A stretch of DNA of 32,000 nucleotides from Trichodesmium erythraeum IMS101 (GCF_000014265.1 NC_008312.1:570001-602000), one strand, 5' to 3'; counted from the first letter of the stretch, positions 5,477 through 30,304 are shown. The notes: generated by a model not told the origin, from the sequence alone. Made by a program: numbers and translations.

Positions 5477-6270
5477 CTAGTCTAGTTGAATATTTGTTAC
5501 TCTTGCCATTCCCCAAAAAATTAAATCAGGTGCATCTATAACTATTGCAGCTAGTTGAGGAAACAGGGTTGTGAAATGAGTAAATAGTATGGAGTGATCC
5601 CCTCCAGTAAATACTATTTTACTTTCAGGAAATTCTTCCAACCAAGATACAACGTAATTTTTCATACCTGCCAATATAGTGTAAATGACTCCACTTTGAA
5701 TTGCTATTCCTGTTTCTTTTGCCCACCGAGTGGGTAACTCTACAGGTATATCAGTTAATGGTAACATAGCTGTTCCCTTTGCTAAGGATGATAACTGTAA
5801 TCTTAGCCCTGGTAAAATAGCTCCTCCCATTATTTTTTTTTTGCATTGGCACCAGTAAAGGTCATTGCCGTACCAGTATCTATAACTAGTATAGGCCAAC
5901 CAAAGTTTGTACCTGCACCTAACACTGCCAAAGCTCTATCTATTCCTAGAGTAGGATAAAGTCCTTGCAACGGTAACTTATTCAGGGTAATCATATCGGA
6001 ATCAGGATAAGTTTGCCAAAGTGCTGTTTGCTCAGGAACTACTGATGCTATTAATAAAGGTATCCTATGATTCAAGTTTATGTTCTTAGTTTCTAATATA
6101 TTTTTGAGGCTTTTTTCTATTCCCTTTTCCTCATTTATATGAGATTTAATTTCTATTTGTTGAAGATGATTAGCATCCCAAGTATTCTGAATTATTTTAT
6201 CAGTAAAATAACCAAAATGTAACCGGGAATTTCCAATCATTAGACCTAACCATTTTTTACTTTCAGGCAT
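5477..6270 (-). pseudogene. coaX: Type III pantothenate kinase (CoaX) interrupted by a frameshift in an A10 tract
   Basis: Two overlapping ORFs (5830..6270 and 5477..5899) together give a full CoaX: GNSRLHFG, LGIDRA, VIDTGTAMTF, then GGAILPGLRL...TA.LP, GIAIQSG, TGG. They are offset by one frame at the homopolymer 5833..5842 (T10 on plus, A10 on the coding strand). One extra A would give ...TGANAKKKIMGGAILPG..., matching the family. Confidence 0.8.
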
Positions 6271-13691: not shown

Positions 13692-15479
13692 GTGTTTGAG
13701 AAATTTTCCCAGGAAAGGTGGCTAATTTTGCCCATATTTCTAACTGTTTTGGGGAGCCCTGTTAAAGTGTCTGCTCATCCGGTCTTGATTTCTAGTCAAG
13801 ATCCAGAAATAGCTAGGACTTTCTGGCTATCTCGGACTAATACTAGCTCTTTGGCTCAAGTTCCTGCTCCCATTCCTCCTAAAACTCCGGAACCCCCTCT
13901 TCCTAAATTTCCTATTCAGCTAGAGTCTCCCCAACTTGATATTACTCCACCCGGAGCTTCAGAGAATGAATTAGAAAACTCTGAACCTTATCTACGGGTG
14001 AAGATTAATAAGTTTGAATTTGTCGGTTACACGGCATTTACCAAGGAAGAATTAGAGGAGGTGGTTAAACCTTTTACTGAGCGACCTATTACCTTTGCTG
14101 AACTCCTCCAAGCTGAGAAAGCGGTGACTGATAAATACGTTCAGGCCGGTTATATCAATTCCGGAGCCGTAATCTTAGCTGGACAAAATCTCAAGGATGG
14201 GGTAGTAAAGATAAAGATTATTGAAGGGGAAATAGAAGATATTCAGGTAACCGTAACAGGACGCTTGAACCCCAACTATGTCCGTAGCCGGTTAGCTCTA
14301 GCTACGGAAAAGCCCTTTGATCAGAATAAGTTACTTCGGGCTCTCCAATTATTACAGCTTGACCCCCTAATAGCTATTATTAAAGCAGAGGTATCAGCTG
14401 GACCCCTTCCCCAATCTAGTTTGCTGACTGTCAGTGTTACCCAGGCAGACTCTTTTAGTATTGAATCTTTTGCTAACAATAGTCGCGCTCCTAATGTGGG
14501 CAGCTTTCAACGGGGTCTTCGGTTAAAGCAGGGAAATTTATTGGGTTTTGGTGATGGACTAAACGCGAGCTATACAAATTCTGACGGTAGTAACAATTTT
14601 AGTTTTAACTACACTATTCCGTTTAATGCCCGCAATGGTACGATTCAACTTACTACAGAATTAACTGATACTCGTGTAGTTGAATCTCCTTTCGATGACC
14701 TTGATATTATGGGAGAGTCCCAATACTACGAACTGACAGTGCGCCAACCTATTATCCAATTTCCTACCCAAGAATTGGCTCTGGGTTTAACTTTTTATCG
14801 ACAAAACCGTGAGAGTGAACTATTGGGAGAACCTTTTCCTCTATCTCCTGGTGCTAATGAGAAGGGGGAAACACGAATCTCGGCGATTCGACTTTTCCAA
14901 GATTGGGTTAAACGGAATCAGGCAGAAGTATTTGCTGTTCGTTCTCAATTTAGTTTGGGAGTGGGGGCTTTCAATGCTACCATTAATGATGACCTCCCCG
15001 ATAGTCGCTTTTTTAGTTGGCGAGGACAAGGACAGTATGTGCGACGTTTAGCTAAGAATTCGGATTCTTTGCTGGTGGTGCGCACAAATATCCAGTTGGC
15101 TGATAGAGGTTTGTTACCTGTAGAACAGTTTCGTATTGGTGGTGTTAATAGTGTTAGGGGTTATCGCCAAGATTTATCGTTTACTGATAATGGACTTTTT
15201 TTAGGCACTGAGGTCCGACTGCCTATTATGCGCTGGGATAATGTAGAGGGAGTTTTGCAGATAGTTCCTTTTGTGGATTTTGGAGTCGGTTGGAACAGTT
15301 CTGATTTGCCTGAACCAGAGCACAATAGTCTGGCAGGAGTCGGTTTTGGGTTACTATGGCAGATGAGCGATCGCCTCAGCGCCCGCTTTGATTGGGGTAT
15401 ACCTTTGATGGACGTTACTTCGGAGGAAAAAACGTTACAGGAAAATGGTCTTTATTTTACCATTGATGCTAAATTTTAG
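13692..15479 (+). CDS. ShlB/FhaC/HecB-family two-partner-secretion outer-membrane transporter (TpsB)
   Basis: GTG start. Signal peptide ...VLGSPVKVSA|HP. POTRA region (RVKINKFEFVGYTAFTKEELEEVVKPF...GYINSGAVIL...VKIKIIEGEIEDI). The C-terminal half is rich in beta-barrel strands (FRIGGVNSVRGY) and ends with a terminal aromatic residue, ...YFTIDAKF. Confidence 0.88.
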   Translation: MFEKFSQERWLILPIFLTVLGSPVKVSAHPVLISSQDPEIARTFWLSRTNTSSLAQVPAPIPPKTPEPPLPKFPIQLESPQLDITPPGASENELENSEPYLRVKINKFEFVGYTAFTKEELEEVVKPFTERPITFAELLQAEKAVTDKYVQAGYINSGAVILAGQNLKDGVVKIKIIEGEIEDIQVTVTGRLNPNYVRSRLALATEKPFDQNKLLRALQLLQLDPLIAIIKAEVSAGPLPQSSLLTVSVTQADSFSIESFANNSRAPNVGSFQRGLRLKQGNLLGFGDGLNASYTNSDGSNNFSFNYTIPFNARNGTIQLTTELTDTRVVESPFDDLDIMGESQYYELTVRQPIIQFPTQELALGLTFYRQNRESELLGEPFPLSPGANEKGETRISAIRLFQDWVKRNQAEVFAVRSQFSLGVGAFNATINDDLPDSRFFSWRGQGQYVRRLAKNSDSLLVVRTNIQLADRGLLPVEQFRIGGVNSVRGYRQDLSFTDNGLFLGTEVRLPIMRWDNVEGVLQIVPFVDFGVGWNSSDLPEPEHNSLAGVGFGLLWQMSDRLSARFDWGIPLMDVTSEEKTLQENGLYFTIDAKF

Positions 15480-15491
15480 AGGGATAAAATT

Positions 15492-18400
15492 ATGGACAAA
15501 TTTCGATGTCAGCCTAAATTAAGTGCTTTTGTTGCTTTGGCCTTTTCTTTGTCGCCAATTGTTGCGACTGCCCAAATTGTTCCTGATGACACTTTGGGTA
15601 AGGAGAGTTCGGTGGTGGTTCCTGATAATATTAAAGGTATTCCCAGTGAACGTCTGGAAGGAGGGGCAATTCGTGATGGTAATCTGTTCCACAGTTTCGG
15701 AGAATTTAATGTTGGGGAGGGACAAGGAGCTTATTTTGCTAATCCTGCTTTGATTGAGAATATATTCACCAGGGTGACTGGGACTAATGTGTCTAACCTT
15801 CTGGGAACTTTGGGAGTGTTGGGTAATGCTAACCTATTTCTGATTAATCCCAACGGCGTTATTTTTGGTCCTAATGCTAGCTTAGATTTGCAGGGGTCTT
15901 TTGTAGTTAGTAGCGCTGAGAGTTTTGTTTTCAACAATTTTGAGTTTAGTGCCTCTAATCCCCAAGCACCACCTTTATTGACGATAAATATTCCCCTGGG
16001 TTTGCGGTTTCAAGAGAATCCGGGACCGATAAGTGCTAGGGCTACTAGTGAGCTTAAGGTAGGACCAAGGCAAACTTTGGGGCTGTTGGGGGGTGAAGTT
16101 AGGTTGGATGGTACTGTCATTGAATCTCCGGGAACTCAAGTAGAGTTGGGGAGTCTCGCTGTTCCTGGGGTAGTGGAACTAAATGAGGATTTAAGTTTCA
16201 TTTTTCCTGAAGGGGCGGCGCGAGGGGATATATTTTTAGGGAATGAGGCGGTAATTAATGTCCGTAGTGGAGGGGGTGGAAGTATAACTATCAAGGCCCA
16301 GAATGTAGATGTTGTGGGCGGAAGTGAACTTCTGGCAGGAATAAGTGAAGGGTTAGGCTCCCCTGAAGCTCAGGGAGGTGATATTGAGATTAATGCTACT
16401 GGTAGAATTAATTTAGCTGATAACAGCTTGATTGATAATGAGGTCGAAGAAAATGCTGTGGGCAACAGTGGTAATATTAAAATTAAGACTGGTGCACTTT
16501 CAGTTAATAATGGCTCAATTATAGGTACTACCATCTCCGGAGAAGGAACTGCTGGCAGTGTGACTATTGAAGCGAGTGACGCTGTAGTCTTGGATGGAGT
16601 AAGAGACTTAGACATTTTAACTGGAGTAAGTAGCAGTGTGGAAGAAGGAGCAGAAGGGAATGGAGGGGTTATCACTATTACCACCGGCTCTCTGGAAGTT
16701 AAAAATGGTGCTGAGATACTTTCCATTAACTGGGGTAAAGGAAATGCAGGGACTGTGAATATTAATGCTACTGAGACTGTCGTCTTGGATGGAGGAAACT
16801 CAGAATTTTCCACTGGAATAGCTACCAGTCTGGAAGAAGGAGCAGAAGGGAAAGCAGGGGTTGTCACTATTACCACAGGCTCTCTGGAAGTTAAAAATGG
16901 TGCTATAATAGATTCCCTTACTTTGGGTAAAGGAGACGCAGGGGCTGTGAATATTAATGCTACTGAGACTGTCGTCTTGGATGGAGAAAACTCAGAATTT
17001 GCTACTGGAGTAAATAGCGATGCGGATCCAGGATCAGAAGGGAATGCAGGGGGTGTTACTATTACCACAGGCTCTCTGGAAGTTAAAAATGGTGCTGTGA
17101 TAGGTGCCGTTACCTTTAGTAAAGGAGATGCAGGGACTGTGAATATTAATGCTACTGAGACTGTCGTCTTGGATGGAGGAGACTCAGAAATTTTAACTGG
17201 AGTAAATAGCAGTGTAGCACCAGGAGCAGAAGGGAATGCAGGGGGTGTTACTATTACCACCGGCTCTCTGGAAGTTAAAAATGGTGCTGTGATAGGTGCC
17301 GTTACCTTTAGTAAAGGAGATGCAGGGACTGTGAATATTAATGCTACTGAGACTGTCGTCTTGGATAGAGGAGACTCAGAATTTTTAACTGTAGTAGCTA
17401 GCAGTGTAGCACCAGGAGCAGAAGGGAAGGCAGGGGGTGTTACTATTACCACCGGCTCTCTGGAAGTTAAAAATGGTGCAGAGATAGAAGCCAGTACCTT
17501 TAGTAAAGGAGATGCAGGGACTGTGAATATTAACGCTACTGAGACTGTAGTCTTGGATGGAGAAAACTCAGAAATTTTGACTGGAGTAACTAGCAGTGTG
17601 GAAGAAGGAGCAGAAGGGAAGGCAGGGGGTGTTACGGTTACCACCGGCTCTCTGGAAGTTAAAAATGGTGCTCAGCTACTTGCCGTTACCTTTGGTAAAG
17701 GAGATGCAGGGACTGTGAATATTAATGCTACTGAGACTGTAATCTTGGATGGAGGAGACTCAGAAATTTTAACTGTAGTGGCTAGCGGTGTAGCACAAGG
17801 AGCAGAAGGGAATGCAGGGGGTGTTACTATTACTACCGGCTCTCTGGAAGTTAAAAATGGTGCTGGGATAGCTGCCGATACTCTTCCTGAGTCCACAGGG
17901 AATGGTAGCGACATCTCCATTGACGCCACCAAAGTTACTATCACCAATAGCTCTGAAATAGTTGTAAGCAGCGCAGGACAGGGCAACAGTGGTAATATAT
18001 TCCTCAGTGCTGGGGACCTCTTCCTTGATCGTGGTTCTAAAGTCTCTGCCATTACTGCTAGTGGCCAAGGAGGTAACATGACTTTCAATATTGCCAATCT
18101 CTTCAGCTTGCGAAACAACAGTCCCATCTCAACTACGGCAGGAGGGACAGGTAATGGTGGAAACATCAACCTATCGACTGAATTTTTCCTCGCCAGAGAC
18201 GACAGCGACATCACTGCCAATGCTTTTGAAGGCAACGGTGGCAATATATCGATTGCAACTCAAGGTATTTTTAGCTTCCCTAATAGCACCATTGATGCTA
18301 GCTCACAACTAGGAATTGATGGAGTTATCGAAATCAATACCCCTGATATTGATCCTAGTCAGGGATTAATTAAGTTGTCAGAAAACGTGGTAGATCCTGA

Positions 18401-18713
18401 CCAATTGATTGCCCAAAATCCATGCCTACAGGGAGAAGAAAGCGAATATATCATCACGGGGCGAGGGGGTTTGTCTCCCAGTCCTGCTCAAACCCTAAAC
18501 AGCGACCCCTTAGAAGTGGGATTAGTGGAAGCAGCCACAGGGACGGCAGCCACTGTTACCCCACCGCCACCACCGACTTCTACTGCCCAAATTGTTCCCG
18601 CCAAAGGGTGGAAACTTAATGAAAAAGGTGAGGTGATCTTAGTGAGTTACGACCCCACTAATACCCAGGTTCAAAAGCACAGAGCTAATCCTGCTACCTG
18701 TCAGCCTCGCTGA
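15492..18713 (+). CDS. Filamentous-haemagglutinin-like TpsA exoprotein (TPS domain plus beta-helical repeats)
   Basis: Signal peptide ...SPIVATA|QIVP. TPS-domain motifs are GNLFHSFGEFNV and ANLFLINPNGVIFG. It is Gly/Asn/Thr/Val-rich, with seven 64-aa tandem units. The C-terminal tail reads NPC-LQGEESEYIITGRGGLSPSP...PPPPP...ATCQPR. It starts 12 nt after the TpsB stop, with AGAGGG 8 nt upstream. Confidence 0.9.
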   Translation: MDKFRCQPKLSAFVALAFSLSPIVATAQIVPDDTLGKESSVVVPDNIKGIPSERLEGGAIRDGNLFHSFGEFNVGEGQGAYFANPALIENIFTRVTGTNVSNLLGTLGVLGNANLFLINPNGVIFGPNASLDLQGSFVVSSAESFVFNNFEFSASNPQAPPLLTINIPLGLRFQENPGPISARATSELKVGPRQTLGLLGGEVRLDGTVIESPGTQVELGSLAVPGVVELNEDLSFIFPEGAARGDIFLGNEAVINVRSGGGGSITIKAQNVDVVGGSELLAGISEGLGSPEAQGGDIEINATGRINLADNSLIDNEVEENAVGNSGNIKIKTGALSVNNGSIIGTTISGEGTAGSVTIEASDAVVLDGVRDLDILTGVSSSVEEGAEGNGGVITITTGSLEVKNGAEILSINWGKGNAGTVNINATETVVLDGGNSEFSTGIATSLEEGAEGKAGVVTITTGSLEVKNGAIIDSLTLGKGDAGAVNINATETVVLDGENSEFATGVNSDADPGSEGNAGGVTITTGSLEVKNGAVIGAVTFSKGDAGTVNINATETVVLDGGDSEILTGVNSSVAPGAEGNAGGVTITTGSLEVKNGAVIGAVTFSKGDAGTVNINATETVVLDRGDSEFLTVVASSVAPGAEGKAGGVTITTGSLEVKNGAEIEASTFSKGDAGTVNINATETVVLDGENSEILTGVTSSVEEGAEGKAGGVTVTTGSLEVKNGAQLLAVTFGKGDAGTVNINATETVILDGGDSEILTVVASGVAQGAEGNAGGVTITTGSLEVKNGAGIAADTLPESTGNGSDISIDATKVTITNSSEIVVSSAGQGNSGNIFLSAGDLFLDRGSKVSAITASGQGGNMTFNIANLFSLRNNSPISTTAGGTGNGGNINLSTEFFLARDDSDITANAFEGNGGNISIATQGIFSFPNSTIDASSQLGIDGVIEINTPDIDPSQGLIKLSENVVDPDQLIAQNPCLQGEESEYIITGRGGLSPSPAQTLNSDPLEVGLVEAATGTAATVTPPPPPTSTAQIVPAKGWKLNEKGEVILVSYDPTNTQVQKHRANPATCQPR
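16548..17891 (+). repeat. Seven in-frame tandem repeats of 192 bp (64 aa) inside the TpsA gene
   Basis: Unit starts are at 16548, 16740, 16932, 17124, 17316, 17508 and 17700, an exact 192-bp period. The consensus is G(D/N)AGTVNINATETVVLDGG.SE..TGV.S.V..GAEG.AGGVTITTGSLEVKNGA.I....F.K. Units at 17124 and 17316 differ at only about 6 nucleotide positions. Further degenerate units flank the array. Confidence 0.9.
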
Positions 18714-18748
18714 GAAAATTCACAACTGACAACTGATGAGGAAAAAGA

Positions 18749-21631
18749 ATGAAGCCCAAAAATACCCCAAATAATTGGAAATTCCTTAAAACACTAATTA
18801 ACCAACGGCATTTCCTCCAAAGTCTGCTGTTGTTAATTTTATTTTTCATAGGCCTAGCAATTCCCCCAGTGGTTGCTCAGATGAGCCCCCAAACTCCCAT
18901 ATTCCAAATTCAACCTGATAGCTTCAGCCTGGAAAAACAGGCTAGAAGCCTCTATCAAACCAGAAACTTTCCTGAAGCCGCCAGATTTTGGGAACAAGCG
19001 GTAGTCGCCTTTGCTAAACAAGGGGATCAACTCAACCATGCCATGGCACTAAGCAACCTTTCCCTAACTCGTCAACAACTTCGAGAGTGGGAATTAGCAC
19101 AAAAGGCTATTGACGAAAGCCTAAATATCCTACAAACCCTAGAAAAAACACCAGAAACACAGCGCATCCTCGCTCAAACCCTGGATATTCAAGGAAAGCA
19201 GTTGCGGGAGGTAGAAAAGCCGGAAAAAGCTCTAGAAACTTGGCAACAAGCTGCTGACCTGTATCGGGAAATTGACAGACCAGAAGCAGCCGCCCAGAAT
19301 GAGTTTAACCAAATTCAGGTACTCCAAGACTTAGGACTTTATCCCCGCGCTTGCAAGAGTTTATTATCAATAATAGAGCTGAATGTTCAAAATTGTCAAG
19401 CATTAAGGAAATTAACCCCAGAAGATTTAAAGCAACAACTCCAAGTATTTGCTCAACGCCCCGCTTCCTTACTCGAAGTCCAGAAATTGCGAAATCTCGG
19501 TGATGTACTGCGAGTTTTAGGTCAGCCAACTAACTCGGAAGTTCTATTAGAAGCTAGTTTGGAGGGAGCTAAACAATTAGAACCTTTCCCAAGCAAAAAC
19601 GCCGAAATTGCTGCTATCTATCTCAGCTTAGGCAATACCGCTCGTGTCCAAGGCAAAAATGACAATGCTAGAGAAGCTTTAACATTCTACCAAGAGGCAG
19701 TTAAAGCAGCTACTGAGTCAGGAACAGCTACCCTCATAATTCAAGCTCAACTCAATGAACTGAGTCTGTTGGTGAAAAAGCAGTCCTGGCCTCAAGTGCC
19801 AGATTTGGTGTCTCAAATTGAACCCCAATTAAATAATTTGCCTCCTAGTCGCGCCGCTATTAATGCCCGACTTAATTTCGCCCAAAGCCTATTCTGCTGG
19901 AAAGAGCCAACCCTCAGTCAGGAAGAACGTCAACTCTCATCTCCTATTATTGAGCAGTGCAGTTTAGCCAGGGATAGAGAGAAAAATAATCAACTTCAGC
20001 CCTCAGATGTTCCGAAATGGGAAGATATTGCCGAAATAGTTACTACCGCTGTCAAGCAGTCTCAAACCTTGGGCAACAAGAGAGCAGAGGCTTATGCTCT
20101 CGGTTATCAGGGCAGCGTTGAGCAACAAATGGAAAAATTTTCAGAAGCTCAAGATTTAACCATAAAAGCTCTGAACATATCATCATCTTTCCAGTTGCCA
20201 GACATTGCCTATCTCTGGCAGTGGCAACTGGGGCGCTTGCGGGAAATTCAGGGAGAGGAAGATGACGCGATCGCTGCTTATAATACCGCCTTTGCCACCC
20301 TTCAGTCCCTGCGGGGAGACTTAGTTTCTATTGATCAGGAAGTTCAATTTACTTTTCGCGACAGTGTAGAACCTGTCTATCGAGAATATGTCGATTTACT
20401 CTTGCGAGGGGAAGATATCTCTCAAGACAACCTTAAACGAGCTCGTGAGGTGATTGAAGCCCTGCAACTAGCTGAACTGAATGACTTTTTTGGCAATGCT
20501 TGTTTGGAAGCAAAACCCAAGAAAATTGACACAGTGATTAAAGAAACTTCCTCCCCAACAGCATTCTTCTACGCAGTTATTTTGAAAGACCGTTTAGAAG
20601 TAATTTTGGCTTTATCAGGAGGCAAAGAATTACAACATTACCATACTAACAAATCTCAAGATGAAGTTAAAGCAATCAAAAAAACAATAAAAGACCTACG
20701 CACATTTCTCTCCAATAAGACGACGGCTTTGGAAGATGTGAAAAAACAATCCCATAAAATATATGATTGGCTAATCAAGAAAGCTCAAAAACAACTAGAA
20801 ACAAATGGGATCCAGACCTTGGTTTTTGTTCTAGATAGTCCATTACGTAATATTCCTATGGCAGTTCTATACAATATCGAAACTGAGCGATATTTGGTAG
20901 AAGACTACGCCATCGCCTTCACCCCAGGCCTGCAACTTTTGAGTCCTCAACCTGTCAAACAATTTCGCTTAAATGGGTTAACAGGAGGTGTGAGCGAAGA
21001 GCGAGAAACTGAGTCAATAAATTTTGGTAGAACGAAACCACAAGATTTTACTGAAATTCCCTTTGTCAAGGAGGAATTAAAAAAAATTCGCTCAGTAATA
21101 TCTAGTTCAACAGAAACTCTATTGAATGAGAAATTTCTTAAAGAGCGACTGCAAAATGAACTCAATTCAGCTAACTTCAACACCGTTCACCTATCAACTC
21201 ACGGCAAATTTAGTTCTAATATAGAAGACACCTATCTTTTAGCTTGGAATGAACTACTCAAAATGGAAGATTTAGAAAACTTGTTCCAAATTAAACTGGC
21301 TAATCAGTCAATTCCCATTGAATTACTCGTCCTGAGTGCTTGCCAAACAGCCAAAGGCGATGAGCGAGCAATATTGGGAATGGCTGGGGTAGCAGTGAAA
21401 GCGGGTGCCCGTAGCACACTAGCCACCTTGTGGCCAGTCTTTGATGAATCCACGGCCGAATTCATGTTCTTATTTTATCAGCAGTTAATCCAGAACCAGG
21501 CTCAAAATATGACCAAAGCTGAAGCACTTCGTCAAGCTCAACTAAAATTATGGGCTCAGAAAAAACCAGGAAAACGGTGGAATCACCCCTATTATTGGGC
21601 TCCCTTTATTTTGCTAGGTAATTGGCTATAA
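18749..21631 (+). CDS. Exported TPR-repeat / CHAT-domain (caspase-fold) protease
   Basis: N-terminal signal or anchor LLLLILFFIGLAIPPVVAQ|M. About 500 aa of TPR-like helical repeats follow. The C-terminal CHAT domain has an intact dyad: H818 in VHLSTHGKF (21200..21202) and C865 in LVLSACQTA (21341..21343), ending HPYYWAPFILLGNW. GAGGA lies 6 nt upstream, and the gene starts 35 nt after the TpsA stop. Confidence 0.88.
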   Translation: MKPKNTPNNWKFLKTLINQRHFLQSLLLLILFFIGLAIPPVVAQMSPQTPIFQIQPDSFSLEKQARSLYQTRNFPEAARFWEQAVVAFAKQGDQLNHAMALSNLSLTRQQLREWELAQKAIDESLNILQTLEKTPETQRILAQTLDIQGKQLREVEKPEKALETWQQAADLYREIDRPEAAAQNEFNQIQVLQDLGLYPRACKSLLSIIELNVQNCQALRKLTPEDLKQQLQVFAQRPASLLEVQKLRNLGDVLRVLGQPTNSEVLLEASLEGAKQLEPFPSKNAEIAAIYLSLGNTARVQGKNDNAREALTFYQEAVKAATESGTATLIIQAQLNELSLLVKKQSWPQVPDLVSQIEPQLNNLPPSRAAINARLNFAQSLFCWKEPTLSQEERQLSSPIIEQCSLARDREKNNQLQPSDVPKWEDIAEIVTTAVKQSQTLGNKRAEAYALGYQGSVEQQMEKFSEAQDLTIKALNISSSFQLPDIAYLWQWQLGRLREIQGEEDDAIAAYNTAFATLQSLRGDLVSIDQEVQFTFRDSVEPVYREYVDLLLRGEDISQDNLKRAREVIEALQLAELNDFFGNACLEAKPKKIDTVIKETSSPTAFFYAVILKDRLEVILALSGGKELQHYHTNKSQDEVKAIKKTIKDLRTFLSNKTTALEDVKKQSHKIYDWLIKKAQKQLETNGIQTLVFVLDSPLRNIPMAVLYNIETERYLVEDYAIAFTPGLQLLSPQPVKQFRLNGLTGGVSEERETESINFGRTKPQDFTEIPFVKEELKKIRSVISSSTETLLNEKFLKERLQNELNSANFNTVHLSTHGKFSSNIEDTYLLAWNELLKMEDLENLFQIKLANQSIPIELLVLSACQTAKGDERAILGMAGVAVKAGARSTLATLWPVFDESTAEFMFLFYQQLIQNQAQNMTKAEALRQAQLKLWAQKKPGKRWNHPYYWAPFILLGNWL

Positions 21632-21649
21632 GCTTGAGGATACAAGCCA

Positions 21650-22510
21650 TTATTTTTCCGGGATACAACAGGATAATATAGGTTCTTCCGCGAAACTTTC
21701 TAAGCCAGCAGCCTTCAACAACTTCTTCCAGTATCCTTTCAGTTCGGGTTCTTGTGGCTCACGACGGCGGCGTTCAGCTAAATCAGTCAGAGCATCATGC
21801 CAAATACCTTTATTAGCATAGTCACTATAAATCTGGAAATTAGAATTCCCCTTAACCCTTTGCACGTAACCTTCTAGAACAACGTTCGCATCTGTATCTT
21901 CTTGATTACAGAAAACTAGGAATAACCAAAGATAGGGACGTTCAATTTCCAGACTCTTCGGTAAATTATCCGGCAGGGGAATACTGACAATTCCAGGAGT
22001 AGCAGAAAAATTAAAAGTAGTTCGGTAAATATCCCTTTCTCCTTCTTCATCTTGGAGGACAAATTGTCCAGTTTGTACCTCCTGAGAATTGTAAGGAATA
22101 TAAAACCAAAATGTAGGAGAATTGCTAACTGTCAAACCCATGTTTTCCGGGACCAAAGCAGTCATCGGCGGATCTACTTTTGGGCAGTCAGGATTCTTAG
22201 TTCCTCCAGAGGTTCGTGTATTTGGTCTCCCTGTCCCAGAAAAATCGATGTTATCAGAATCGTTTTTTTTATCGGTTTTTTTTTCGCTTAAAAGCTTTAC
22301 CTTAACCGAGTCAGAATTGAGAATTAAGCTAGGTTCCTGTCCCTCCGCTGAGGGAAAATATATAATTAAGCTAGCAACACTCCAAGCAATAGTGAAAGCA
22401 GCAAAAGAAAACCCTAACAAAACTAATTTATTTTGATTCATTACTCCTAATCCTATATTTATGTAACTTACAGCAATTCCCGTTGTTATTATATACACCA
22501 ACGGGAGCAA
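21650..22510 (-). CDS. DUF928-domain exported protein (likely true start at 22441)
   Basis: Family-typical core: GTGRPNTRTSGGTKNPDC...MTALVPENMGLTVSNSPTFWFYIP...FVLQDE...PGIVSIPLP...YLWLFLVFCN...LEGYVQRV. The internal Met at 22441 (MNQNKLVLLGFSFAAFTIAWSVASL) gives a clean signal peptide and follows AGGAG. Its stop is 18 bp from the convergent CHAT stop. Confidence 0.8.
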   Translation of the reverse strand: MLPLVYIITTGIAVSYINIGLGVMNQNKLVLLGFSFAAFTIAWSVASLIIYFPSAEGQEPSLILNSDSVKVKLLSEKKTDKKNDSDNIDFSGTGRPNTRTSGGTKNPDCPKVDPPMTALVPENMGLTVSNSPTFWFYIPYNSQEVQTGQFVLQDEEGERDIYRTTFNFSATPGIVSIPLPDNLPKSLEIERPYLWLFLVFCNQEDTDANVVLEGYVQRVKGNSNFQIYSDYANKGIWHDALTDLAERRRREPQEPELKGYWKKLLKAAGLESFAEEPILSCCIPEK

Positions 22511-22555
22511 TATAGTTGCACTACAAGATTTTCATTATTTACCATGTATATCATT

Positions 22556-24907
22556 TTACAGAAACATGGTGTCATTAATTGTTTTATTAGAGAAAATTAT
22601 CGCTATCCCAGTTAAAAAGAAACCTAGTATCGAGGGAACCAGTGGCAGCCATCCGCCAATTTCTATAAAAACTAAAAAGCAGATTCCCCATAACGTAACA
22701 GGTACTGCTACTACAGTTATCCCAATGAACCACCTTCCAAAAACTTGCCTGCTCCAACAAATACCCAGTATTCCTCCTATAAAAGACCAACCCCAAACCC
22801 AAATATTTTCTAAGGCCTGCGGCCACCACCACAAAAGTGTTCGCCCATCTAAGACAGCACTGAGAATCTGACTGATCATGTGACCATGAATCATTATTCC
22901 TGGTATCTTCTTATTATAGGGAGTCAAATGCATATCTTCATAACCAACCTCAGCAGCATCAGTCCCAATGAGAACAATTTTGTTCTTGACCAGATGGGCG
23001 AGTTTAGAGTCACGGGATCCATCAAGTAATTCCTTAAGAGTCATCGTTTCCGCAATTTTCTCAGAAGAACGGTAATTGAGAAGAATTTGATAACCTAGTG
23101 CTTCCCTTTTAGGCAAATGATATCCCCCAGCATCCTTCTCTAATTTATGGAAAAGGACCTCATTAATTTTTAAGTTACCTTGATTAAATTCTCCTGCTCT
23201 CTTTTCCATGCCTTTTTCTTTTAGATAACGAATTGCTATCCTCAGACTAAAAGAATAACTTGAACAAAGGGAGTTTTCAGGAATTGACATCCCCAACAAC
23301 TGACGTCGAATAACGCCACCAGAGTCTTGAGGAAAATCAGCAAAACCTATTCGTTGTTTTTCTTGAATTTCAGGAGGAGGTTCTATGCCAATACTATTAT
23401 TTTTTTCTTCCTTAATTTTACATACAGCGATCAAGCTTTTATTCTGGGCGAGCTGAGTTTTTAAATGTTCATCTTTAGCAGGAAAATCTCGAAAGATATC
23501 TAGACCGATAACTAGAGGTTTATAGGTATTTAATTTGTCTAAAACTTTAATAATTGCTTGGTCTGATAGTGATTCTCCTCCTATTTCCCACCCCATTTCC
23601 TTTTGATATTTAATATCTTCTGGAGTAACTGTAACAATTAGCAAGCGTTTATCTGGACCTTCATCTCTCCTCCATCTTATCATCTGATCGAAAGCCTGTA
23701 GTTTGAATTGTTGTACTCTCTCTGGAGGCTTTGTTACTAAAGTAGTTATGAATATGCTTATTAGCAGTACAATAGACAGAATAGTATATGATTTTAATAT
23801 TTTAAAAAAATTTTGTTGATATTTGCCTTGATTTATCTCTCTTTTCAGGTTAATGTTTGGTAATTCTTTAAAGATTATTTCAGGCTCTTCTTGGGCAATT
23901 CCTAATTTATTTTTTGGTTTTTCTATTTGATATTTACACTTAAATAAATTCTCTTTAGATTCATTTCTCCTAAACTGTAACTTTGGCTCTAGTTGAGTTT
24001 TTGCTAAAACAATATCATAAGCTTCTCCATGTAAAATGTGGATTTCTGGTTTCATACCACCGCCATATTTGAATTTGGGGATATTCTCTTTAACATATTT
24101 CGGTATATTAACTTCCAAAAACTTATAAAAAGAGTCAACTGTTACTTTTCCTTCTTCGTTAGCAGCATCACCATTTAAAGCTAATTGAGCATAGTAAGTA
24201 AAGATAGAAAGATCAGACTGATTTTCCATAAAATATGATTTTTGATCCCCTGCTGAAGAAGTAATAATTACTAATCCTTCTTTTTGTTTAATTTCAACTG
24301 AATTATCCGAACTTATTCCCTTAGATATGGCTTGATATCTTTGTTTTTGATTTAACAACTGTTGAATTAGTAAATTCTCTGCTGAATCATTTTTACCTTT
24401 ACTGTATCCTCGAACAAAAGCGCCTGAATAACATAAATCTAACAGCCATACTTGAGAATTAGAAGTACAATTTTTTATTTGTCGGTGGAAATAACTTGCT
24501 TCAATAGCTCCTGTAATTATTTCTGTATCCCTATCATAACTTGTCTCAGAAGTTGCGATATAAAAAGTTCCTTCTGCATCTGTAATACCGTGACTTGAAA
24601 CATAAATAAGTAAAGTATCTGATTTTTGAGACTCGTAAAAAAACTTGTTGATGGCATATTCCATGTCTTTTCTATCAAGATTTTCCTCCTGGATAACTTC
24701 AAACCCACCCTTTTCTTCCAAGCATTTTTTCATAACTTGAACGTCTTCTAGTGTTGGGGAGAAGTTATCTAATCCTTCACCAAATATTGTTATTCCAATT
24801 AATAAAGCACGTCTTCGTTCCATAACTTGTTGATGACATATTCCCTGTATTTTTTTATCAAGATTTTCATTCTTGATAACTTCAAATACCCCCCTTTTTT
24901 TTAGCAT
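22556..24907 (-). CDS. Peptidase-C14 caspase domain (N-terminal, cytoplasmic) fused to a CHASE2 transmembrane sensor; alternative start at 24823
   Basis: The caspase core is RRALLIGI...LLIYVSSHGI (H106, 24590..24592) ... WLLDLCYSGAF (C159, 24431..24433). TM1 is at about aa 366-392. The CHASE2-like periplasmic region begins RLLIVTVTPEDI...LVIGLDIFRDFPA. Three C-terminal TM helices follow, and the protein ends about 15 aa later with no C-terminal output domain. Residues 1-28 derive from a decayed duplicate, so Met29 (MERRRALLIG) may be the real start. Confidence 0.85.
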   Translation of the reverse strand: MLKKRGVFEVIKNENLDKKIQGICHQQVMERRRALLIGITIFGEGLDNFSPTLEDVQVMKKCLEEKGGFEVIQEENLDRKDMEYAINKFFYESQKSDTLLIYVSSHGITDAEGTFYIATSETSYDRDTEIITGAIEASYFHRQIKNCTSNSQVWLLDLCYSGAFVRGYSKGKNDSAENLLIQQLLNQKQRYQAISKGISSDNSVEIKQKEGLVIITSSAGDQKSYFMENQSDLSIFTYYAQLALNGDAANEEGKVTVDSFYKFLEVNIPKYVKENIPKFKYGGGMKPEIHILHGEAYDIVLAKTQLEPKLQFRRNESKENLFKCKYQIEKPKNKLGIAQEEPEIIFKELPNINLKREINQGKYQQNFFKILKSYTILSIVLLISIFITTLVTKPPERVQQFKLQAFDQMIRWRRDEGPDKRLLIVTVTPEDIKYQKEMGWEIGGESLSDQAIIKVLDKLNTYKPLVIGLDIFRDFPAKDEHLKTQLAQNKSLIAVCKIKEEKNNSIGIEPPPEIQEKQRIGFADFPQDSGGVIRRQLLGMSIPENSLCSSYSFSLRIAIRYLKEKGMEKRAGEFNQGNLKINEVLFHKLEKDAGGYHLPKREALGYQILLNYRSSEKIAETMTLKELLDGSRDSKLAHLVKNKIVLIGTDAAEVGYEDMHLTPYNKKIPGIMIHGHMISQILSAVLDGRTLLWWWPQALENIWVWGWSFIGGILGICWSRQVFGRWFIGITVVAVPVTLWGICFLVFIEIGGWLPLVPSILGFFLTGIAIIFSNKTINDTMFL

Positions 24908-25006
24908 TTATTGATAACTTAAATTTCTTCCAGTGTGGGGGGGGAAGTTATCTAATTCTTCACAAAATGTTATTATTCAAATTAATAAAGCACGTCTTCC
25001 TTCCAT
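24824..25006 (-). pseudogene. Decayed upstream copy of a 183-bp tandem duplication of the caspase gene 5' end
   Basis: The minus strand from 25006 reads ATGGAAGGAAGACGTGCTTTATTAATTTGA..., against the functional copy from 24823, ATGGAACGAAGACGTGCTTTATTAATTGGA... The similarity continues for the full 183 bp (to ..ATCAACAAGTT). The upstream copy has a TGA at codon 10 and compensating single-nt indels at C8 and A8/G6 runs. Confidence 0.8.
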
Positions 25007-25023
25007 ATCTGTTAATCCAGATT

Positions 25024-25416
25024 TTAGATCATATTCTTAACTTCATGTAGTAAAGTATAAAACTCTTTATCAGAACAATTTTGTCTTTCTGCTTGAAAAA
25101 TTAAAGTACCATCTTCTCTGAAAAATTGTACTTTATACTTTCCATTTGTTTTTTCATCTACTAAACTCATTGACCGAGTGATTCTCTCTTCTTCTGCTTC
25201 TAATTCTAGCTCTATAATTCCTGGTAAGTAACCTCCCCCTTTATTTGGTTCAGATGAATTTGATTCAGGCTCAAGAATGCGTTTTACTTTTTCAATCACA
25301 TTCAAAAGTTTTAGCTGTTTCATTTGTTTCAAAAGCTTTATTGTTTCTGTCTCTAGTCTATTTGAATCAATATGTATCAGAGTTATAATAAGTTTAACAT
25401 TTGAAATATTATTCAT
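25024..25416 (-). CDS. Hypothetical 130-aa soluble protein (possible adaptor; weak resemblance to EACC1-type components)
   Basis: The ORF sits between the WD40 gene and the caspase-CHASE2 gene on the same strand. Its stop is 17 nt upstream of the ancestral caspase ATG (25006). It has no TM segment or signal peptide. The charged central segment is EPESNSSEPNKGGGYLPGIIELELEAEEE and the C-terminal region is beta-rich (KYKVQFFREDGTLIFQAER). Confidence 0.6.
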   Translation of the reverse strand: MNNISNVKLIITLIHIDSNRLETETIKLLKQMKQLKLLNVIEKVKRILEPESNSSEPNKGGGYLPGIIELELEAEEERITRSMSLVDEKTNGKYKVQFFREDGTLIFQAERQNCSDKEFYTLLHEVKNMI

Positions 25417-25538
25417 TAAGCTATATTTAATAAATTGAGTTTTTAAGTAAGATTTATGATAACATATTTATGGCAATAAAATCAACGAAAAATTCCCCCT
25501 TATGGCAAGGCTTTAGAGCTGATTTTTTTATTAATCTA

Positions 25539-26810
25539 TTACTGATTAATACTCGAAGGTTTCCAAGTACAAATATTTCCTTGGCTATTGCTACTAAGTA
25601 ATCTTTGAGAATGTTGACTAAATACAAGGCACTGAGTATAATTTGGATATGTCTCCAAAGTTTGTATAACATTGCTTTCACGCCAATTATGAATCTTAAT
25701 AGTCTGACTGTAACTAGCACTAGCCAGAGTTTGACTATCTGGACTAAAAGCCAATGAAAGAACTGCTTTTGAATGTTTCTCTAACTTTTTTATGAAAGTT
25801 CCCGAATTGAGATTCCAAAGATAAATCTCACCATCTTTCCCTCCACTAGCCACAACTTCATTATTTGGACTAATTGCTAGAGAAGTTACCCAATCTGAAT
25901 GTTGTTCTAAACTTTCTGATTCTGGAAAAGATATCCAATCTTCATAGTACTGATGAGGTTGATTATCTTTAGAAGGTACTCCCCAAGAATAAACCTTGCC
26001 ATCTTTTCCCCCGCTAACTAGCATGCCACCATTTGGGCTCATAGCTAAACACATAACTCCATCTTTATGCTTAGACAAACAACCTACTTGTTTTATTTCT
26101 TTAGGCAAAGACCAAACCTTAATTTGCTCACTCTCATAGGAATTAATAAATAAATACTCTCCATTTGGACTCAGAGACATAGATTCAATAGCATAAGGAT
26201 TAGACCCCAATTCTTTTTGATGCAAAGTCCATTTAACTTCTTGCGTCTGTAAATTCCAAATTTTTATTTTTTCGTCATAACTGCCACTAATTAATTCTTC
26301 CTCTGAACTGAAAACAAGACATGAAACATCTTTTTCATGAGCTTTTAATGAACATTTCACTTTTCGTTTCTGTAAATCCCAAATTTTTATTTCTCCGTCA
26401 TAACTCCCGCTAGCAAGAGTGTTTCCATTTGGACTCAGAGCTATACTGCCAACACTATTTGCATGACCTGTGAGAGTATATTCATTTTCAAGTAATGTAT
26501 TTTCCCAAGGATTTGAGACAAACTCATATTGATCTATTCCCAACGACTTCCAATCAGTTACTTTTCTCCAATCAATATCAATAGCTTGGCATAAGGCAAT
26601 GTAACCTTTAACTTCGATTGGCTTTTTGCTCTTAAATCGCTTCAATGTTGATACAGAAGTAACCCGTGCTTTATTATCAATGTGATTAGTAGCTTTTTCA
26701 AGCCAATCTAAATCATTCCAACTTGGATTATTTTTTTTTATTCTTGCAATATTATTTTTAATAATTTCCAACCCTTGTTCAGACAATTGTAAAGAACGCG
26801 GCCAACCCAT
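25539..26810 (-). CDS. HTH-like N-terminal domain plus seven-bladed WD40 repeat protein
   Basis: The N-terminus (LSEQGLEIIKNNI...VTSVSTLKRFKSKKPIEVKGYIALCQAIDIDWRKV) resembles the HTH-like module common at the N-termini of cyanobacterial WD40/STAND proteins. Seven WD40 units follow (for example LTGHANSVGSIALSPNGNTLASGSYDGEIKIWDL and LEQHSDWVTSLAISPNNEVVASGGKDGEIYLWNL). There is no NTPase domain between them. Confidence 0.85.
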   Translation of the reverse strand: MGWPRSLQLSEQGLEIIKNNIARIKKNNPSWNDLDWLEKATNHIDNKARVTSVSTLKRFKSKKPIEVKGYIALCQAIDIDWRKVTDWKSLGIDQYEFVSNPWENTLLENEYTLTGHANSVGSIALSPNGNTLASGSYDGEIKIWDLQKRKVKCSLKAHEKDVSCLVFSSEEELISGSYDEKIKIWNLQTQEVKWTLHQKELGSNPYAIESMSLSPNGEYLFINSYESEQIKVWSLPKEIKQVGCLSKHKDGVMCLAMSPNGGMLVSGGKDGKVYSWGVPSKDNQPHQYYEDWISFPESESLEQHSDWVTSLAISPNNEVVASGGKDGEIYLWNLNSGTFIKKLEKHSKAVLSLAFSPDSQTLASASYSQTIKIHNWRESNVIQTLETYPNYTQCLVFSQHSQRLLSSNSQGNICTWKPSSINQ

Positions 26811-27335
26811 AATTTTATCCTTTTACTTTCTTTATTGAGGTTAATTTTAGCCTCTTTAAGTATATTTGGGAAAAAAATCTATTGGACTATGGAGAGGGCA
26901 ATTTGATGCTCAAGCACCAGGGCAAGCTAGACTATCATTCCAGACAACACGGACACAACCTAGGTCACCTTGCTAATCGGTGTTTTTGTCCTAATTTGGA
27001 TATATACAGTACTTAAATCTTGCTTTCATAGAATGACTTTGAAACTAAAAAGCATAATCACATAAACATAACCAGTGGAAAAAAAATAAACTAAAAATTA
27101 ACCCGCTTATGGGCGAGGCTTGAAACCCAATTTTTCAGTAAATTATAACTTCGCTCTGACCTAAAAAGCTTGTATGGAGGGTCTCTACCTAACTCCTAAG
27201 TTCTGAATTCTACTCTCACCCATAAGACTTATTCAGTAAGCCCTATTTAGCTTTTTTTTTAACAAATAGTCTCTAATAAATAGTTAGGTTCAATTCATAA
27301 AAATATGCTGATCATATTCCATGTATTGAGACAAG

Positions 27336-27396
27336 TTCAGTAATGGTTCAGTTAAAGTTCAGTAATGGTTCAGTTGAAATTCAGTAATGGTTCAGT
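27336..27396 (+). promoter_or_regulatory. Phased array of six direct TTCAGT hexamers at exact 11-bp spacing (three 22-bp units)
   Basis: TTCAGT occurs at 27336, 27347, 27358, 27369, 27380 and 27391. The 22-bp unit is (A/G)GTTCAGTAATGGTTCAGTT(A/G)A, repeated three times over 27334..27399. The array lies 162 nt upstream of the sigma-factor ATG, in the divergent intergenic region shared with the WD40 operon. Confidence 0.6.
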
Positions 27397-27557
27397 TGAT
27401 ATACATCTACTAGAAAAATCAACTAAATTTAGTCAAAAATTGACCCTCAACTGCTCTTGTTTTTTAGGGAAAAATCAAGTATTATTAAGCTACTTTAAAA
27501 ATCAGAAAGTCTGGCAATTTTAAAAAAAACTAGTGTATCTAACAATAATTTTTTGTA

Positions 27558-28646
27558 ATGTTAAACGAACAGAAAACAACTAGAAATATTGATTCACTAT
27601 TTTGGCTAGAATGGCAAAAGCATCAAGAGTATCTCTACCGTTGCTGTGTCAAATGGATGGGAGGTAATTCTACAAATGCTGAGGATGCTTTAAGTATGGC
27701 CATGCTCAAGGCTAGGGAAAAAATACAACAGTCTTCCAGAAGAATTGAGAACTTAAAACCTTGGCTGGCTAAACTAACCTATAACCTTTGTATGGATCTA
27801 CTGAAGGAGTCTGCTCGATATAATCAAGGGGTTGAGGATCTAGACTTGGTTATTTCTGGCGCTGATGGGAGCACTCAAGGAGGAGATCCATTTTTTGTTG
27901 TTGCCTACGAAGAACTAAAAGATTTTTGTAACTTGGCCATTGATGATTTGCCAAAGAGACTACGAGAAACTTTTGTTCTCCTTTATCAGAAACAATTCTC
28001 TTCTCAAGAAATAGCTGCAGAGTTGAATATTTCTGACTCTAATGTCCGTAAGCGTATTTCCCGGGGGCGGGCTATTTTGGAAAAAAGGCGCCAGAAAGAG
28101 TACGAAAAACAAGAAGAAATAGTTATTGTGGAGAATCAAAAAATAGAAAGTTCCCAACCTCAAGAGTTGGATACAGAAATTGTTACTGCTGAGATACCCC
28201 AAGAGACTATTTTATCTGAAGAGAAAAGTGAGCCTATTTTAGTTGAGGCCACGGTTGAGGAGGAGTTACGGGAAATAGAGACTTTTGGCAATGGAGGACA
28301 GCAGCTCTTTGCTCTATCTGTATTGTTGAAATTACTTAGGGTAGAGAATAAAAAGCCCAAGGGTGAGAAACAACAAAAATGTGGTCTACTTAGTAGATGC
28401 ACAAATATAGGACTGGCATTGCTGAGGGGCAGGATGAATATAAGTGGAGTCCGCATCCTGCTAACCCAAAAATATAAGAAACGGCTCAAATGGCTCACCC
28501 ACAAAGTGATAGAGGCTCAACCACATTATTTATACAATTTTGGCAAGGGGGAACTAAAAGCTTTAGAAAAACAGTTGAATTGGTTAATAATGGAGAATTT
28601 CCTAGGGCCTTCAGCAGCAAAACTGGTATATAAAGACTGCTGCTAG
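27558..28646 (+). CDS. ECF-type sigma-70 family factor with a roughly 185-aa C-terminal extension
   Basis: Region 2 is YLYRCCVKWMGGNSTNAEDALSMAMLKAREKI...KPWLAKLTYNLCMDLLKE. Region 4 HTH is LPKRLRETFVLLYQKQFSSQEIAAELNISDSNVRKRISRGRAILEKR. An acidic linker and a basic, Leu-rich tail ending KDCC follow; neither has a recognisable TM segment or known domain. Confidence 0.75.
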   Translation: MLNEQKTTRNIDSLFWLEWQKHQEYLYRCCVKWMGGNSTNAEDALSMAMLKAREKIQQSSRRIENLKPWLAKLTYNLCMDLLKESARYNQGVEDLDLVISGADGSTQGGDPFFVVAYEELKDFCNLAIDDLPKRLRETFVLLYQKQFSSQEIAAELNISDSNVRKRISRGRAILEKRRQKEYEKQEEIVIVENQKIESSQPQELDTEIVTAEIPQETILSEEKSEPILVEATVEEELREIETFGNGGQQLFALSVLLKLLRVENKKPKGEKQQKCGLLSRCTNIGLALLRGRMNISGVRILLTQKYKKRLKWLTHKVIEAQPHYLYNFGKGELKALEKQLNWLIMENFLGPSAAKLVYKDCC

Positions 28647-29778: not shown

Positions 29779-30304
29779 TAGACCTCTCGAAGATGAACCA
29801 GGAATAGAAGTGATTCTTTATAGAAAATAAAAAATTTATGTAAATGATCCTAGGTTTCTCGGAACGGTTCATCGGTTTCTCTTCGACTTCTACTCGACTA
29901 GGACAGGAATTACACGAAAAGACTAACCTGTAATGCAAATATCTGATAAAACTGCCAAGATGCACTATCAATGAGCCAGGATAGACTTACTTAAAGGAAT
30001 TAACGATTAACTTTAATGACCTTTTTGATGGTAACAGCGGCAAAGATATCCTCCAAGATACCGTTGCTGCCTATCTTATATAAGGTTTAGCTGAAGGCAG
30101 AAAGCAAAAGGAGCAAGGCTTGGAGCTATTTTTCTTGAAAACTACTGGTTTTCACAAATGATTTAGGATGGCTATATAACCGGATTATATCTAACAATGG
30201 AAAGCACTGTTGTATTTGTACTACAATAAGTGTCTTTGGGTAAGTCCTAATATTTCAATATCAGGCAAGCATTTATCTATTAACCTATTTCCTACAAAAA
30301 AACT

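Follow-up and report, generated by a model that had tools for sequence, protein, structure and literature searches.

A CHASE2-linked orthocaspase of Trichodesmium erythraeum and its place in an envelope gene cluster

A caspase-type protease in front of a CHASE2 sensor that carries no output domain behind its last transmembrane (TM) helix raises the question of how such a protein is built, where it came from and what its protease could respond to. The protein is encoded by an open reading frame (ORF) on the minus strand of Trichodesmium erythraeum IMS101, which spans exactly positions 22556..24907 of the analysed 32,000-nucleotide stretch NC_008312.1:570001-602000 (hereafter referred to as the window) and comprises 783 amino acids. 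Positions are counted from the first nucleotide of the window, and residues are numbered according to the annotated 783-residue ORF unless stated otherwise. On balance, the product, an already described CHASE2 orthocaspase, is probably a protein of the inner membrane in which a cytoplasmic C14 protease domain, probably specific for Arg/Lys, is connected by a linker helix to TM1, an external CHASE2 domain and three further TM helices. The gene would have arisen as a Trichodesmium fusion within an envelope gene cluster, and its product would be activated along the route proposed below.

The domain order was established with Pfam, which placed Peptidase_C14 (PF00656) at residues 31-248 (64.1 bits, cutoff 21.4) and CHASE2 (PF05226) at residues 387-713 (198.9 bits, cutoff 26.3), bearing out the proposal of an earlier, sequence-only reading that a caspase lies N-terminal to CHASE2. 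Based on Pfam, an AlphaFold2 (AF2) model, Foldseek and a subfamily profile, the caspase-fold domain was assigned to residues 31-303 (23999..24817) and is predicted to be cytoplasmic. It is followed by a Lys/Arg-rich linker (residues 304-371; 23795..23998), defined by AF2 and by homology to the linker of a caspase-TPR protein (P0006), and by TM1 (residues ~372-392; 23732..23794), defined by hydropathy, AF2 and a homology junction. The CHASE2 domain (residues ~393-696; 22820..23731), predicted to be extracytoplasmic from Pfam, AF2 and the charges of the TM loops, precedes TM2-TM4 (residues ~697-782; 22562..22819; hydropathy and AF2), directly after which the stop codon is located. All of these features are on the minus strand. 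In the hydropathy profile, one strong hydrophobic segment stands out at ~367-395, and residues ~722-774 form a hydrophobic block near the C-terminus. Together with the AF2 helices, this profile indicates one TM helix before CHASE2 and three after it: a continuous helix (343-392) comprises the C-terminal part of the linker and TM1, and TM2, TM3 and TM4 cover residues 697-719, 725-749 and 756-782. The model was computed from 39 sequences and reached a mean predicted local distance difference test (pLDDT) score of 73.8, with values mostly above 90 in CHASE2 and of 70-89 in the caspase core.

The protein ends 9-10 residues past the last hydrophobic segment. The early stop noted in the sequence-only reading was thus confirmed, but not the distance of about 15 residues given there. 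Only 45 bp separate the stop codon from the longest ORF of the neighbouring DUF928 gene (21650-22510; likely ATG at 22441), whose product has its own signal peptide, and the orthologs P0001 (96% identity) and P0002 (86%) as well as stand-alone CHASE2 relatives also terminate right past the last TM helix. An output domain that had been lost would therefore have had no space here, and a C-terminal output missed because of a frameshift was ruled out, so that the claimed absence of such a domain holds.

The caspase domain is most likely cytoplasmic and CHASE2 extracytoplasmic, as had been assumed from the start. Hydropathy of the caspase-CHASE2 protein revealed neither a signal peptide nor any hydrophobic segment ahead of residue 367, and the loop between TM2 and TM3 contains two Arg, with no Lys or Arg between TM3 and TM4, a distribution that fits an external CHASE2 domain and internal N- and C-termini. 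The opposite arrangement, with an exported caspase in the periplasm and CHASE2 inside the cell, would place the protease beside a partner CHAT protease, also of caspase fold, that is clearly exported, and it gains something from the Lys/Arg charges flanking TM1, which are equal (4 and 4) and make this helix alone uninformative on orientation. It is very improbable in view of the missing export signal and the loop charges, and also because relatives carry AAA_35, TIR, CHAT or kinase domains at the same N-terminal position (Pfam). As TIR, AAA_35 and kinase domains depend on NAD+ or ATP, their presence there speaks for a position in the cytoplasm. In addition, CHASE2 is described in the literature as an extracellular sensory domain (PMC2853523, PMC3501461, PMC7475262, Kaur et al. 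2021).

A structure model, which the sequence-only reading had suggested building, gave a caspase fold. When it was compared with the PDB by Foldseek, all of the top 50 matches were caspases (caspase-4, -11, -1, -3, -7, -8) or MALT1, with E-values of ~5e-7 to 4e-5 and template modelling (TM) scores of ~0.3-0.66 (normalised to target length and higher for caspase-only chains). Caspase-4, -11, -1 and MALT1 were the best matches (E ~5e-7, TM score ~0.6). A profile built from alignment A4, which covers the caspase subfamily, matched Arabidopsis metacaspase-4 (AtMC4; 3e-8) and MALT1 (9e-7). In these alignments, the catalytic His106 ('SSHG'; codon 24590..24592, minus strand) coincides with 'SGHG' of AtMC4, 'AGHG' of MALT1 and 'MSHG' of caspase-4. 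The catalytic Cys159 ('LLDLCYSG'; codon 24431..24433, minus strand) lies in an invariant D-x-C motif (family consensus 'LDcC') aligned with 'LDMC' of MALT1. The family motif 'aavkDv', which contains Asp55, aligns with 'CVNDV' and with 'PLVDV' of MALT1, and Asp157, two residues before Cys159, is a candidate acidic residue of the S1 pocket. The columns of Asp55, His106, Asp157 and Cys159 are invariant in A4, and all four residues are retained in the 86% ortholog, so the His106/Cys159 dyad is intact as claimed.

We take D365, H415, D462 and C464 to be the MALT1 equivalents of Asp55, His106, Asp157 and Cys159. In MALT1, D365 and D462 help to bind the P1 arginine. An Arg/Lys-type S1 pocket, and with it the earlier classification as an Arg/Lys-type protease, is plausible from the alignment of Asp55 and Asp157 with these motifs. 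Caspases and MALT1 are activated by dimerisation; the suggestion that CHASE2 drives dimerisation of the protease is compatible with the closest structural matches, since these dimerise on activation. The Microcystis orthocaspase MaOC1 shares with AtMC4, MALT1 and the window protein the caspase fold, the His/Cys dyad and the acidic residues aligned with 'PLVDV' and 'LDMC'; it needs autoprocessing, whereas caspases and MALT1 need dimerisation. Unlike MALT1, AtMC4 and MaOC1, the window protein is membrane-tethered, and its sequence identity to solved caspase-fold structures is only ~15-20%. An insertion of 28 residues after the Cys strand is common only to the window protein, P0006 and P0179 in A4. 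Cleavage after basic residues is reported for orthocaspases (PMC6426788).

The protein is not new. Its sequence is identical to ABG49850.1 / WP_011610246.1 / UniProt Q119H4, a 'putative Chase2 sensor protein' of T. erythraeum IMS101, and neighbouring proteins of the window are also exact IMS101 proteins. Tery_0382 and TeMC1 are presumably names for this gene. A T. erythraeum metacaspase with CHASE2 was listed by Jiang et al. 2010 under the name 'Putative Chase2 sensor protein' as the sole CHASE2 metacaspase in that study (PMC2853523). Asplund-Samuelsson et al. 2012 described the same protein with a 1+3 TM topology, receptor outside and metacaspase inside (PMC3501461), and a review of 2020 presented a model in which ligand binding to CHASE2 of membrane-bound orthocaspases triggers the p20 domain (PMC7475262). 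The architecture, topology and proposed ligand-triggered activation of the published IMS101 CHASE2 metacaspase (IMG 638105709) are all the same as those found here, so that the protein and its reading have been known since 2010-2012 and the novelty implied by the sequence-only reading is lost. Its observation was confirmed and its interpretation is partly supported, and the finding as first stated is a rediscovery that matters very little. Neither the surrounding two-partner secretion (TPS), CHAT and DUF928 gene cluster nor the small ORF upstream, the duplication at the 5' end or the point of fusion is mentioned in the published descriptions. An experimentally demonstrated pathway from a receptor to an orthocaspase was not found in the accessible literature.

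A second assumption of the sequence-only reading, namely that CHASE2 normally has a C-terminal output and that an N-terminal effector is exceptional, is contradicted by the relatives of the protein. Two samples were used, one of 119 CHASE2 relatives obtained by a word-indexed search and one of the 148 best representatives from an exhaustive search of 1.84 billion cluster representatives, and architectures were classified with BLAST by whether a protein extends beyond the CHASE2 module on its N- or C-terminal side. Among the 148 representatives, an extension was present at the N-terminus only in 106, at the C-terminus only in 7 and at both ends in 4, with CHASE2 alone in 31; the corresponding numbers for the 119 relatives were 65, 43, 1 and 10. 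In this clade, a cytoplasmic domain before CHASE2 and nothing after it is thus the rule, and a C-terminal cytoplasmic output, absent from the window protein, is not one of its defining traits. The N-terminal partners are mostly CHAT domains, which also have a caspase fold, in addition to AAA_35, TIR and some kinases. The domains found in the sample of 119 comprise ~55 cases of CHAT+CHASE2, 6 of AAA_35+CHASE2, 1 of TIR+CHASE2 and only 2 of C14+CHASE2. The two clusters with this last architecture resemble Trichodesmium: that at 96% is the cluster of the window protein itself, and that at 86% stems from a marine metagenome. Examples assigned by Pfam are CHAT (206-343) ahead of CHASE2 (395-717) in P0034, AAA_35 (11-350) ahead of CHASE2 (377-701) in P0014 and TIR domains ahead of CHASE2 (647-985) in P0109. 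A GGDEF-EAL output (P0108) and one kinase (P0073) are placed behind CHASE2.

A parallel in design is provided by CHAT-CHASE2 proteins of filamentous cyanobacteria such as P0034 of Calothrix sp. 336/3, which likewise have a caspase-fold protease before TM1-CHASE2-3TM, no C-terminal output and a DUF928 gene directly downstream. Their CHASE2 parts are ~40% identical to that of the window protein. In these proteins, however, the protease is CHAT (PF12770) behind an N-terminal domain of ~100 residues, whereas the window protein carries C14, and their genes are accompanied by those for a sigma factor and DUF1822 instead of TpsA/TpsB. Kaur et al. 2021 probably refer to the same group as 'EACC2-caspase-CHASE2' proteins.

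The annotated start of the gene appears to be an artefact of a local duplication. A decayed tandem duplicate of the caspase gene's initial 183 bp, with a period of 183 bp, occupies positions 24824..25010 (minus strand), and three blocks in it recur at intervals of 182-183 bp. The annotated ATG (24907) and the first 28 annotated codons fall within this duplicate, and residues 5-18 ('RGVFEVIKNENLDK') echo residues 66-79 because the 5' end of the gene was duplicated. The orthologous locus L004, which stems from a marine metagenome and encodes a protein of 86% identity, is free of the duplication, and the stop codon of the small upstream ORF lies there ~18 bp ahead of 'ATGGAACGAAGACG', the caspase ATG. 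Metagenomic orthologs, with lengths of 755-762 residues, start at MERRR, corresponding to ATG 24823, and P0001, P0002 and P0365 begin at the same Met. Given this common start and the position of ATG 24907 in the duplicate, the true coding sequence is probably 22556..24823 (minus strand; 755 residues), with the first 28 annotated residues spurious. In this numbering the dyad is His78/Cys131. The correction is relevant to anyone expressing the protease domain.

The origin of the protein is suggested by relatives that match either half of it. P0006, the caspase-TPR protein, matches residues 30-376 at 64% and its linker is homologous to that of the window protein up to residue 376, and P0003, a stand-alone CHASE2 protein, matches residues 378-773 at 78%. 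These boundaries place the fusion junction at the start of TM1. No representative matching both halves was found in the exhaustive search of 1.84 billion, and the synonymous divergence (dS) from each of the separate-gene relatives is only ~0.3. Stand-alone CHASE2 proteins (P0010 of Richelia sinica, P0371 of Trichodesmium sp. MAG_R04 and P0003) are 44-78% identical to the CHASE2 part and have the same end after TM4; they have no cytoplasmic domain and only ~37 residues before TM1, whereas the N-terminal part of the window protein is longer by 343 residues. With P0371, a stand-alone CHASE2 allele is present inside the genus. P0365 (760 residues, from a 3.3-kb metagenome contig) combines a caspase 97% identical to that of the window with a CHASE2 part 91% identical to stand-alone P0003, and either arose when fused and unfused alleles recombined or is an artefact of chimeric assembly. 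The sequences point to a fusion, so far seen in Trichodesmium alone, in which a mobile cassette of a 130-residue ORF, the caspase and a helical linker was placed before a normally stand-alone CHASE2 gene of a conserved envelope cluster of cyanobacteria.

The 130-residue ORF of this cassette (25024..25416, minus strand) is conserved and, judged by its linkage to caspase genes in other lineages, a probable partner of the caspase. The same ORF of ~130 residues lies 4 bp upstream of caspase genes in Moorena sp. SIO3C2 (L012 7038-7439) and at the caspase-TPR locus L013 (1-402). Across loci, the spacing between ORF and caspase gene is 4-18 bp and the caspase C-termini differ (CHASE2, TPR, other), an arrangement resembling a two-gene cassette. 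Relative to the Moorena L012 and L013 copies, the ratio of nonsynonymous to synonymous substitution rates (dN/dS) of the ORF is 0.39-0.45. Its product contains no TM segment (maximal 19-residue hydropathy 0.54) and has no match in Pfam, NCBIfam or PADLOC, even at E-values up to 1 or 10. An assignment to TRADD-N or another known domain was rejected, as there was no family match and the poor AF2 model (pLDDT 62) gave only insignificant ferredoxin-like matches and no TRADD-N. The protein is an obvious candidate for a substrate or regulator of the caspase.

The pairing of a small 5' gene with a caspase also occurs in the EACC1 system (Kaur et al. 2020), where a small conserved gene precedes an N-terminal caspase whose variable C-terminus in some cases comprises TM helices together with an extracellular domain. 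It brings in a serious, if unlikely, rival explanation, proposed for EACC1 and EACC2, in which the protein would act as a constant autopeptidase that, upon a stimulus, cuts its own Lys/Arg-rich linker or the 130-residue protein and so yields a soluble protease or an unmasked effector, with CHASE2 and its TM helices as a variable sensor or a released membrane module. The two-gene layout, with a TPR or CHASE2 C-terminus on the caspase, is kept in Moorena and L013, and the linker (304-371) is not only Lys/Arg-rich but also fast-evolving. In NCBIfam, the caspase matched 'caspase, EACC1-associated type' (NF047832) best, yet the 86.3 bits of this match remain below the cutoff of 140, and PADLOC gave only a weak, generic caspase match. 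A preprint reports that EACC1 is experimentally a protease-activated pore former (bioRxiv 10.1101/2025.11.14.688446). EACC1 is, however, marked by one conserved TM helix that bears a Gly patch and occurs mainly in actinobacteria, whereas the 5' ORF of the window lacks a TM helix. Membership in the EACC1 two-gene system was rejected because of this missing helix and the caspase score. For EACC2-caspase proteins, Kaur et al. 2021 list CHASE2 and TM helices among the variable C-termini and propose activation as an autopeptidase. The window protein has no N-terminal EACC2-like domain, with beta-strand 1 of the caspase starting at residue 3-4 of the 755-residue protein, and EACC2 membership was rejected as well. 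An indirect comparison of the 130-residue ORF with the N-terminal domain of CHAT-CHASE2 proteins by hhalign returned a probability of 0.7%. EACC2 systems have neighbouring genes for an extracytoplasmic function (ECF) sigma factor and DUF1822 (or TRADD-N), whereas the window contains a divergent, unrelated ECF sigma gene and no DUF1822 gene. Tblastn searches of the window found neither DUF1822 nor the sigma factor of the Calothrix CHAT-CHASE2 locus, and the ECF sigma factor of the window is therefore unrelated to the CHAT-CHASE2-linked one. Its gene (27558-28646, plus strand) is located 2.6 kb upstream of the caspase gene and encodes an uncharacterised C-terminal extension of ~180 residues.

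Downstream of the orthocaspase gene lies a group of genes for exported or envelope proteins. TpsB, an outer-membrane transporter of the ShlB/FhaC type with a POTRA domain (13692..15479, plus strand), is followed by a TpsA-type exoprotein with a TPS secretion domain and a filamentous-haemagglutinin N-terminal domain (15492..18713, plus strand) and by an exported TPR-CHAT protease with a signal peptide, TPR repeats and CHAT (18749..21631, plus strand). The CHAT gene is convergent with that of a DUF928 protein with a signal peptide (21650..22441, minus strand), which is immediately downstream of the caspase-CHASE2 gene. Upstream and on the same strand as the latter is a gene for a WD40 protein with an N-terminal domain of ~95 residues (25539..26810, minus strand), which is possibly part of the caspase-CHASE2 unit; a WD40-hypothetical-CHASE2-DUF928 array has been noted in Nostoc punctiforme (PMC5587647). 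An ORF of 424 codons antisense within the TpsA gene (16370-17644, minus strand) is most likely spurious and coincides with a strong positive GC skew. A promoter and terminator scan of 21400-27700 yielded no more sites than shuffled sequence, a result that says nothing on operon structure, and an Rfam scan detected one tRNA only, far from the locus.

The term TpsB-TpsA-CHAT-DUF928-CHASE2 cluster is a descriptive grouping of our own and not a named family. All five gene families recur in the same order and orientation in Richelia sinica FACHB-800 (L005/L006) when compared with window positions 13692-24907, with identities of 47% for CHAT (full length), 34% for DUF928 and 34% for TpsA. The CHASE2 protein of this species (P0010; 454 residues) is without a cytoplasmic domain. 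A DUF928 gene adjoins the CHASE2 gene in five of the six fully annotated loci of the clade (L004, L005-7, L008/9, L010 and L015), the exception being a kinase-CHASE2 locus (L014) with neither DUF928 nor CHAT. Exported CHAT and DUF928 proteins are also encoded beside CHAT-CHASE2 in Calothrix (L008/L009) and beside CHASE2-GGDEF-EAL in L015. The triad of CHAT, DUF928 and CHASE2 thus recurs with varying output (none, N-terminal CHAT, C-terminal GGDEF-EAL or N-terminal C14), and every CHAT and DUF928 partner examined starts with a signal-peptide-like sequence. Neither the triad with exported CHAT nor its link to TPS was found described in the searchable literature. The DUF928 proteins of the window, L004, L005, L008, L010 and L015 share a Gly/Arg-rich motif after the signal peptide (e.g. 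'FSGTGRPN..R..GG....C' or 'GGGTRGDC'), which could be a processing or recognition site.

These neighbours allow the activation route of a tethered, CHASE2-controlled orthocaspase to be sketched. An extracytoplasmic event, probably originating from the exported CHAT, DUF928 and TpsA partners, would alter the state of CHASE2, and the change would be relayed by TM1 and the juxtamembrane helix (343-392). Oligomerisation, or autoprocessing within the basic loops of the cytoplasmic protease, would then turn this protease on, and it would cleave cytoplasmic targets, for which the co-encoded 130-residue protein is the obvious candidate. In a tentative extension, to which we attach a low likelihood, CHAT, DUF928 and, where present, TpsA/TpsB would form an undescribed extracytoplasmic signal-generating module with CHASE2 as its dedicated receptor, to which cyanobacteria would attach no output, GGDEF-EAL, CHAT or a C14 caspase. 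CHAT could, for instance, process DUF928 or TpsA into a CHASE2 ligand, and the Trichodesmium fusion, which would be recent and still polymorphic, would wire this module at the cell surface to a cytoplasmic death-type protease and its small partner.

Several observations weigh against this account of the protein and its partners. The AF2 model is poorly defined at residues 154-224, including the loop of the catalytic Cys and the 28-residue insertion, and the 183-bp duplication has displaced the gene from its original start context. CHAT, DUF928 and TpsA are linked to CHASE2 by gene order alone. Most of the orthologous CHASE2 genes in this cluster encode no cytoplasmic domain, so the module may not be a classical signal-to-output sensor. 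An ortholog of 95% identity in Trichodesmium sp. MAG_R02 (L001 1704-3839) stops at about residue 700, before TM2-4, which may reflect a frameshift or pseudogene or an error in the assembly of this metagenome-assembled genome. Finally, the caspase domain, intact and with its active site kept, is under weak purifying selection and is the least constrained folded part. Relative to L004, dN/dS was 0.69 for the caspase part (p for a value below 1, 0.15), 1.07 for the linker (p = 0.52), 0.52 for the CHASE2 part (p = 0.012), 0.38 for DUF928 (p = 0.022) and 0.31 for CHAT (p = 0.00014). The caspase part gave 0.64 against L013 (p = 0.026) and the CHASE2 part 0.45 against L003 (p = 1e-5).

The dN/dS of the caspase part against its closest ortholog, which is indistinguishable from 1, would also be expected if the fusion were nearly neutral and possibly decaying, with CHASE2 doing the job of the cluster and the caspase a recent passenger of little or no function. 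The coexistence of fused and stand-alone alleles in the genus, the decayed duplication at the 5' end, the interrupted MAG_R02 copy and a split pantothenate kinase gene in the same window point in the same direction, and only ~60% coding sequence is reported for the T. erythraeum genome (PMC4143802). Such a passenger role is nevertheless distinctly unlikely, given that the full 755-residue frame is retained in the strain of the window, in the 96% and 86% clusters and in P0365, that all four active-site residues are kept and that dN/dS is significantly below 1 against the caspase-TPR relative. Reviews furthermore report the induction of several Trichodesmium metacaspase genes during iron stress and bloom collapse, although the gene analysed here was not matched to a TeMC number.

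Two further features of the window lie outside the cluster. A type III pantothenate kinase is split into overlapping ORFs at 5477-5899 and 5830-6270 (minus strand), which cover profile positions 141-202 and 6-141, respectively, and is probably frameshifted. Another, large gene (~30285-32000, plus strand), whose recurring 'DSNGN..WAK.IGG' units resemble a beta-propeller, begins near the right-hand edge of the window and continues past it, and the many short minus-strand ORFs in this region are its antisense shadows.

Beyond the published description of the orthocaspase, the locus offers modest new leads in its cluster context, its small partner ORF and the existence of alleles with and without the fusion. 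The occurrence of fused and stand-alone alleles of one CHASE2 gene within one genus constitutes a clean natural experiment. The cluster context supplies candidate partners in the form of the exported CHAT protease, DUF928, TpsA/TpsB and the conserved 130-residue ORF. According to a review, programmed cell death of cyanobacteria has been investigated most in Trichodesmium. If the proposed wiring of an extracytoplasmic module to the protease were true, it would provide a concrete receptor-to-caspase route for programmed cell death in bloom collapse.

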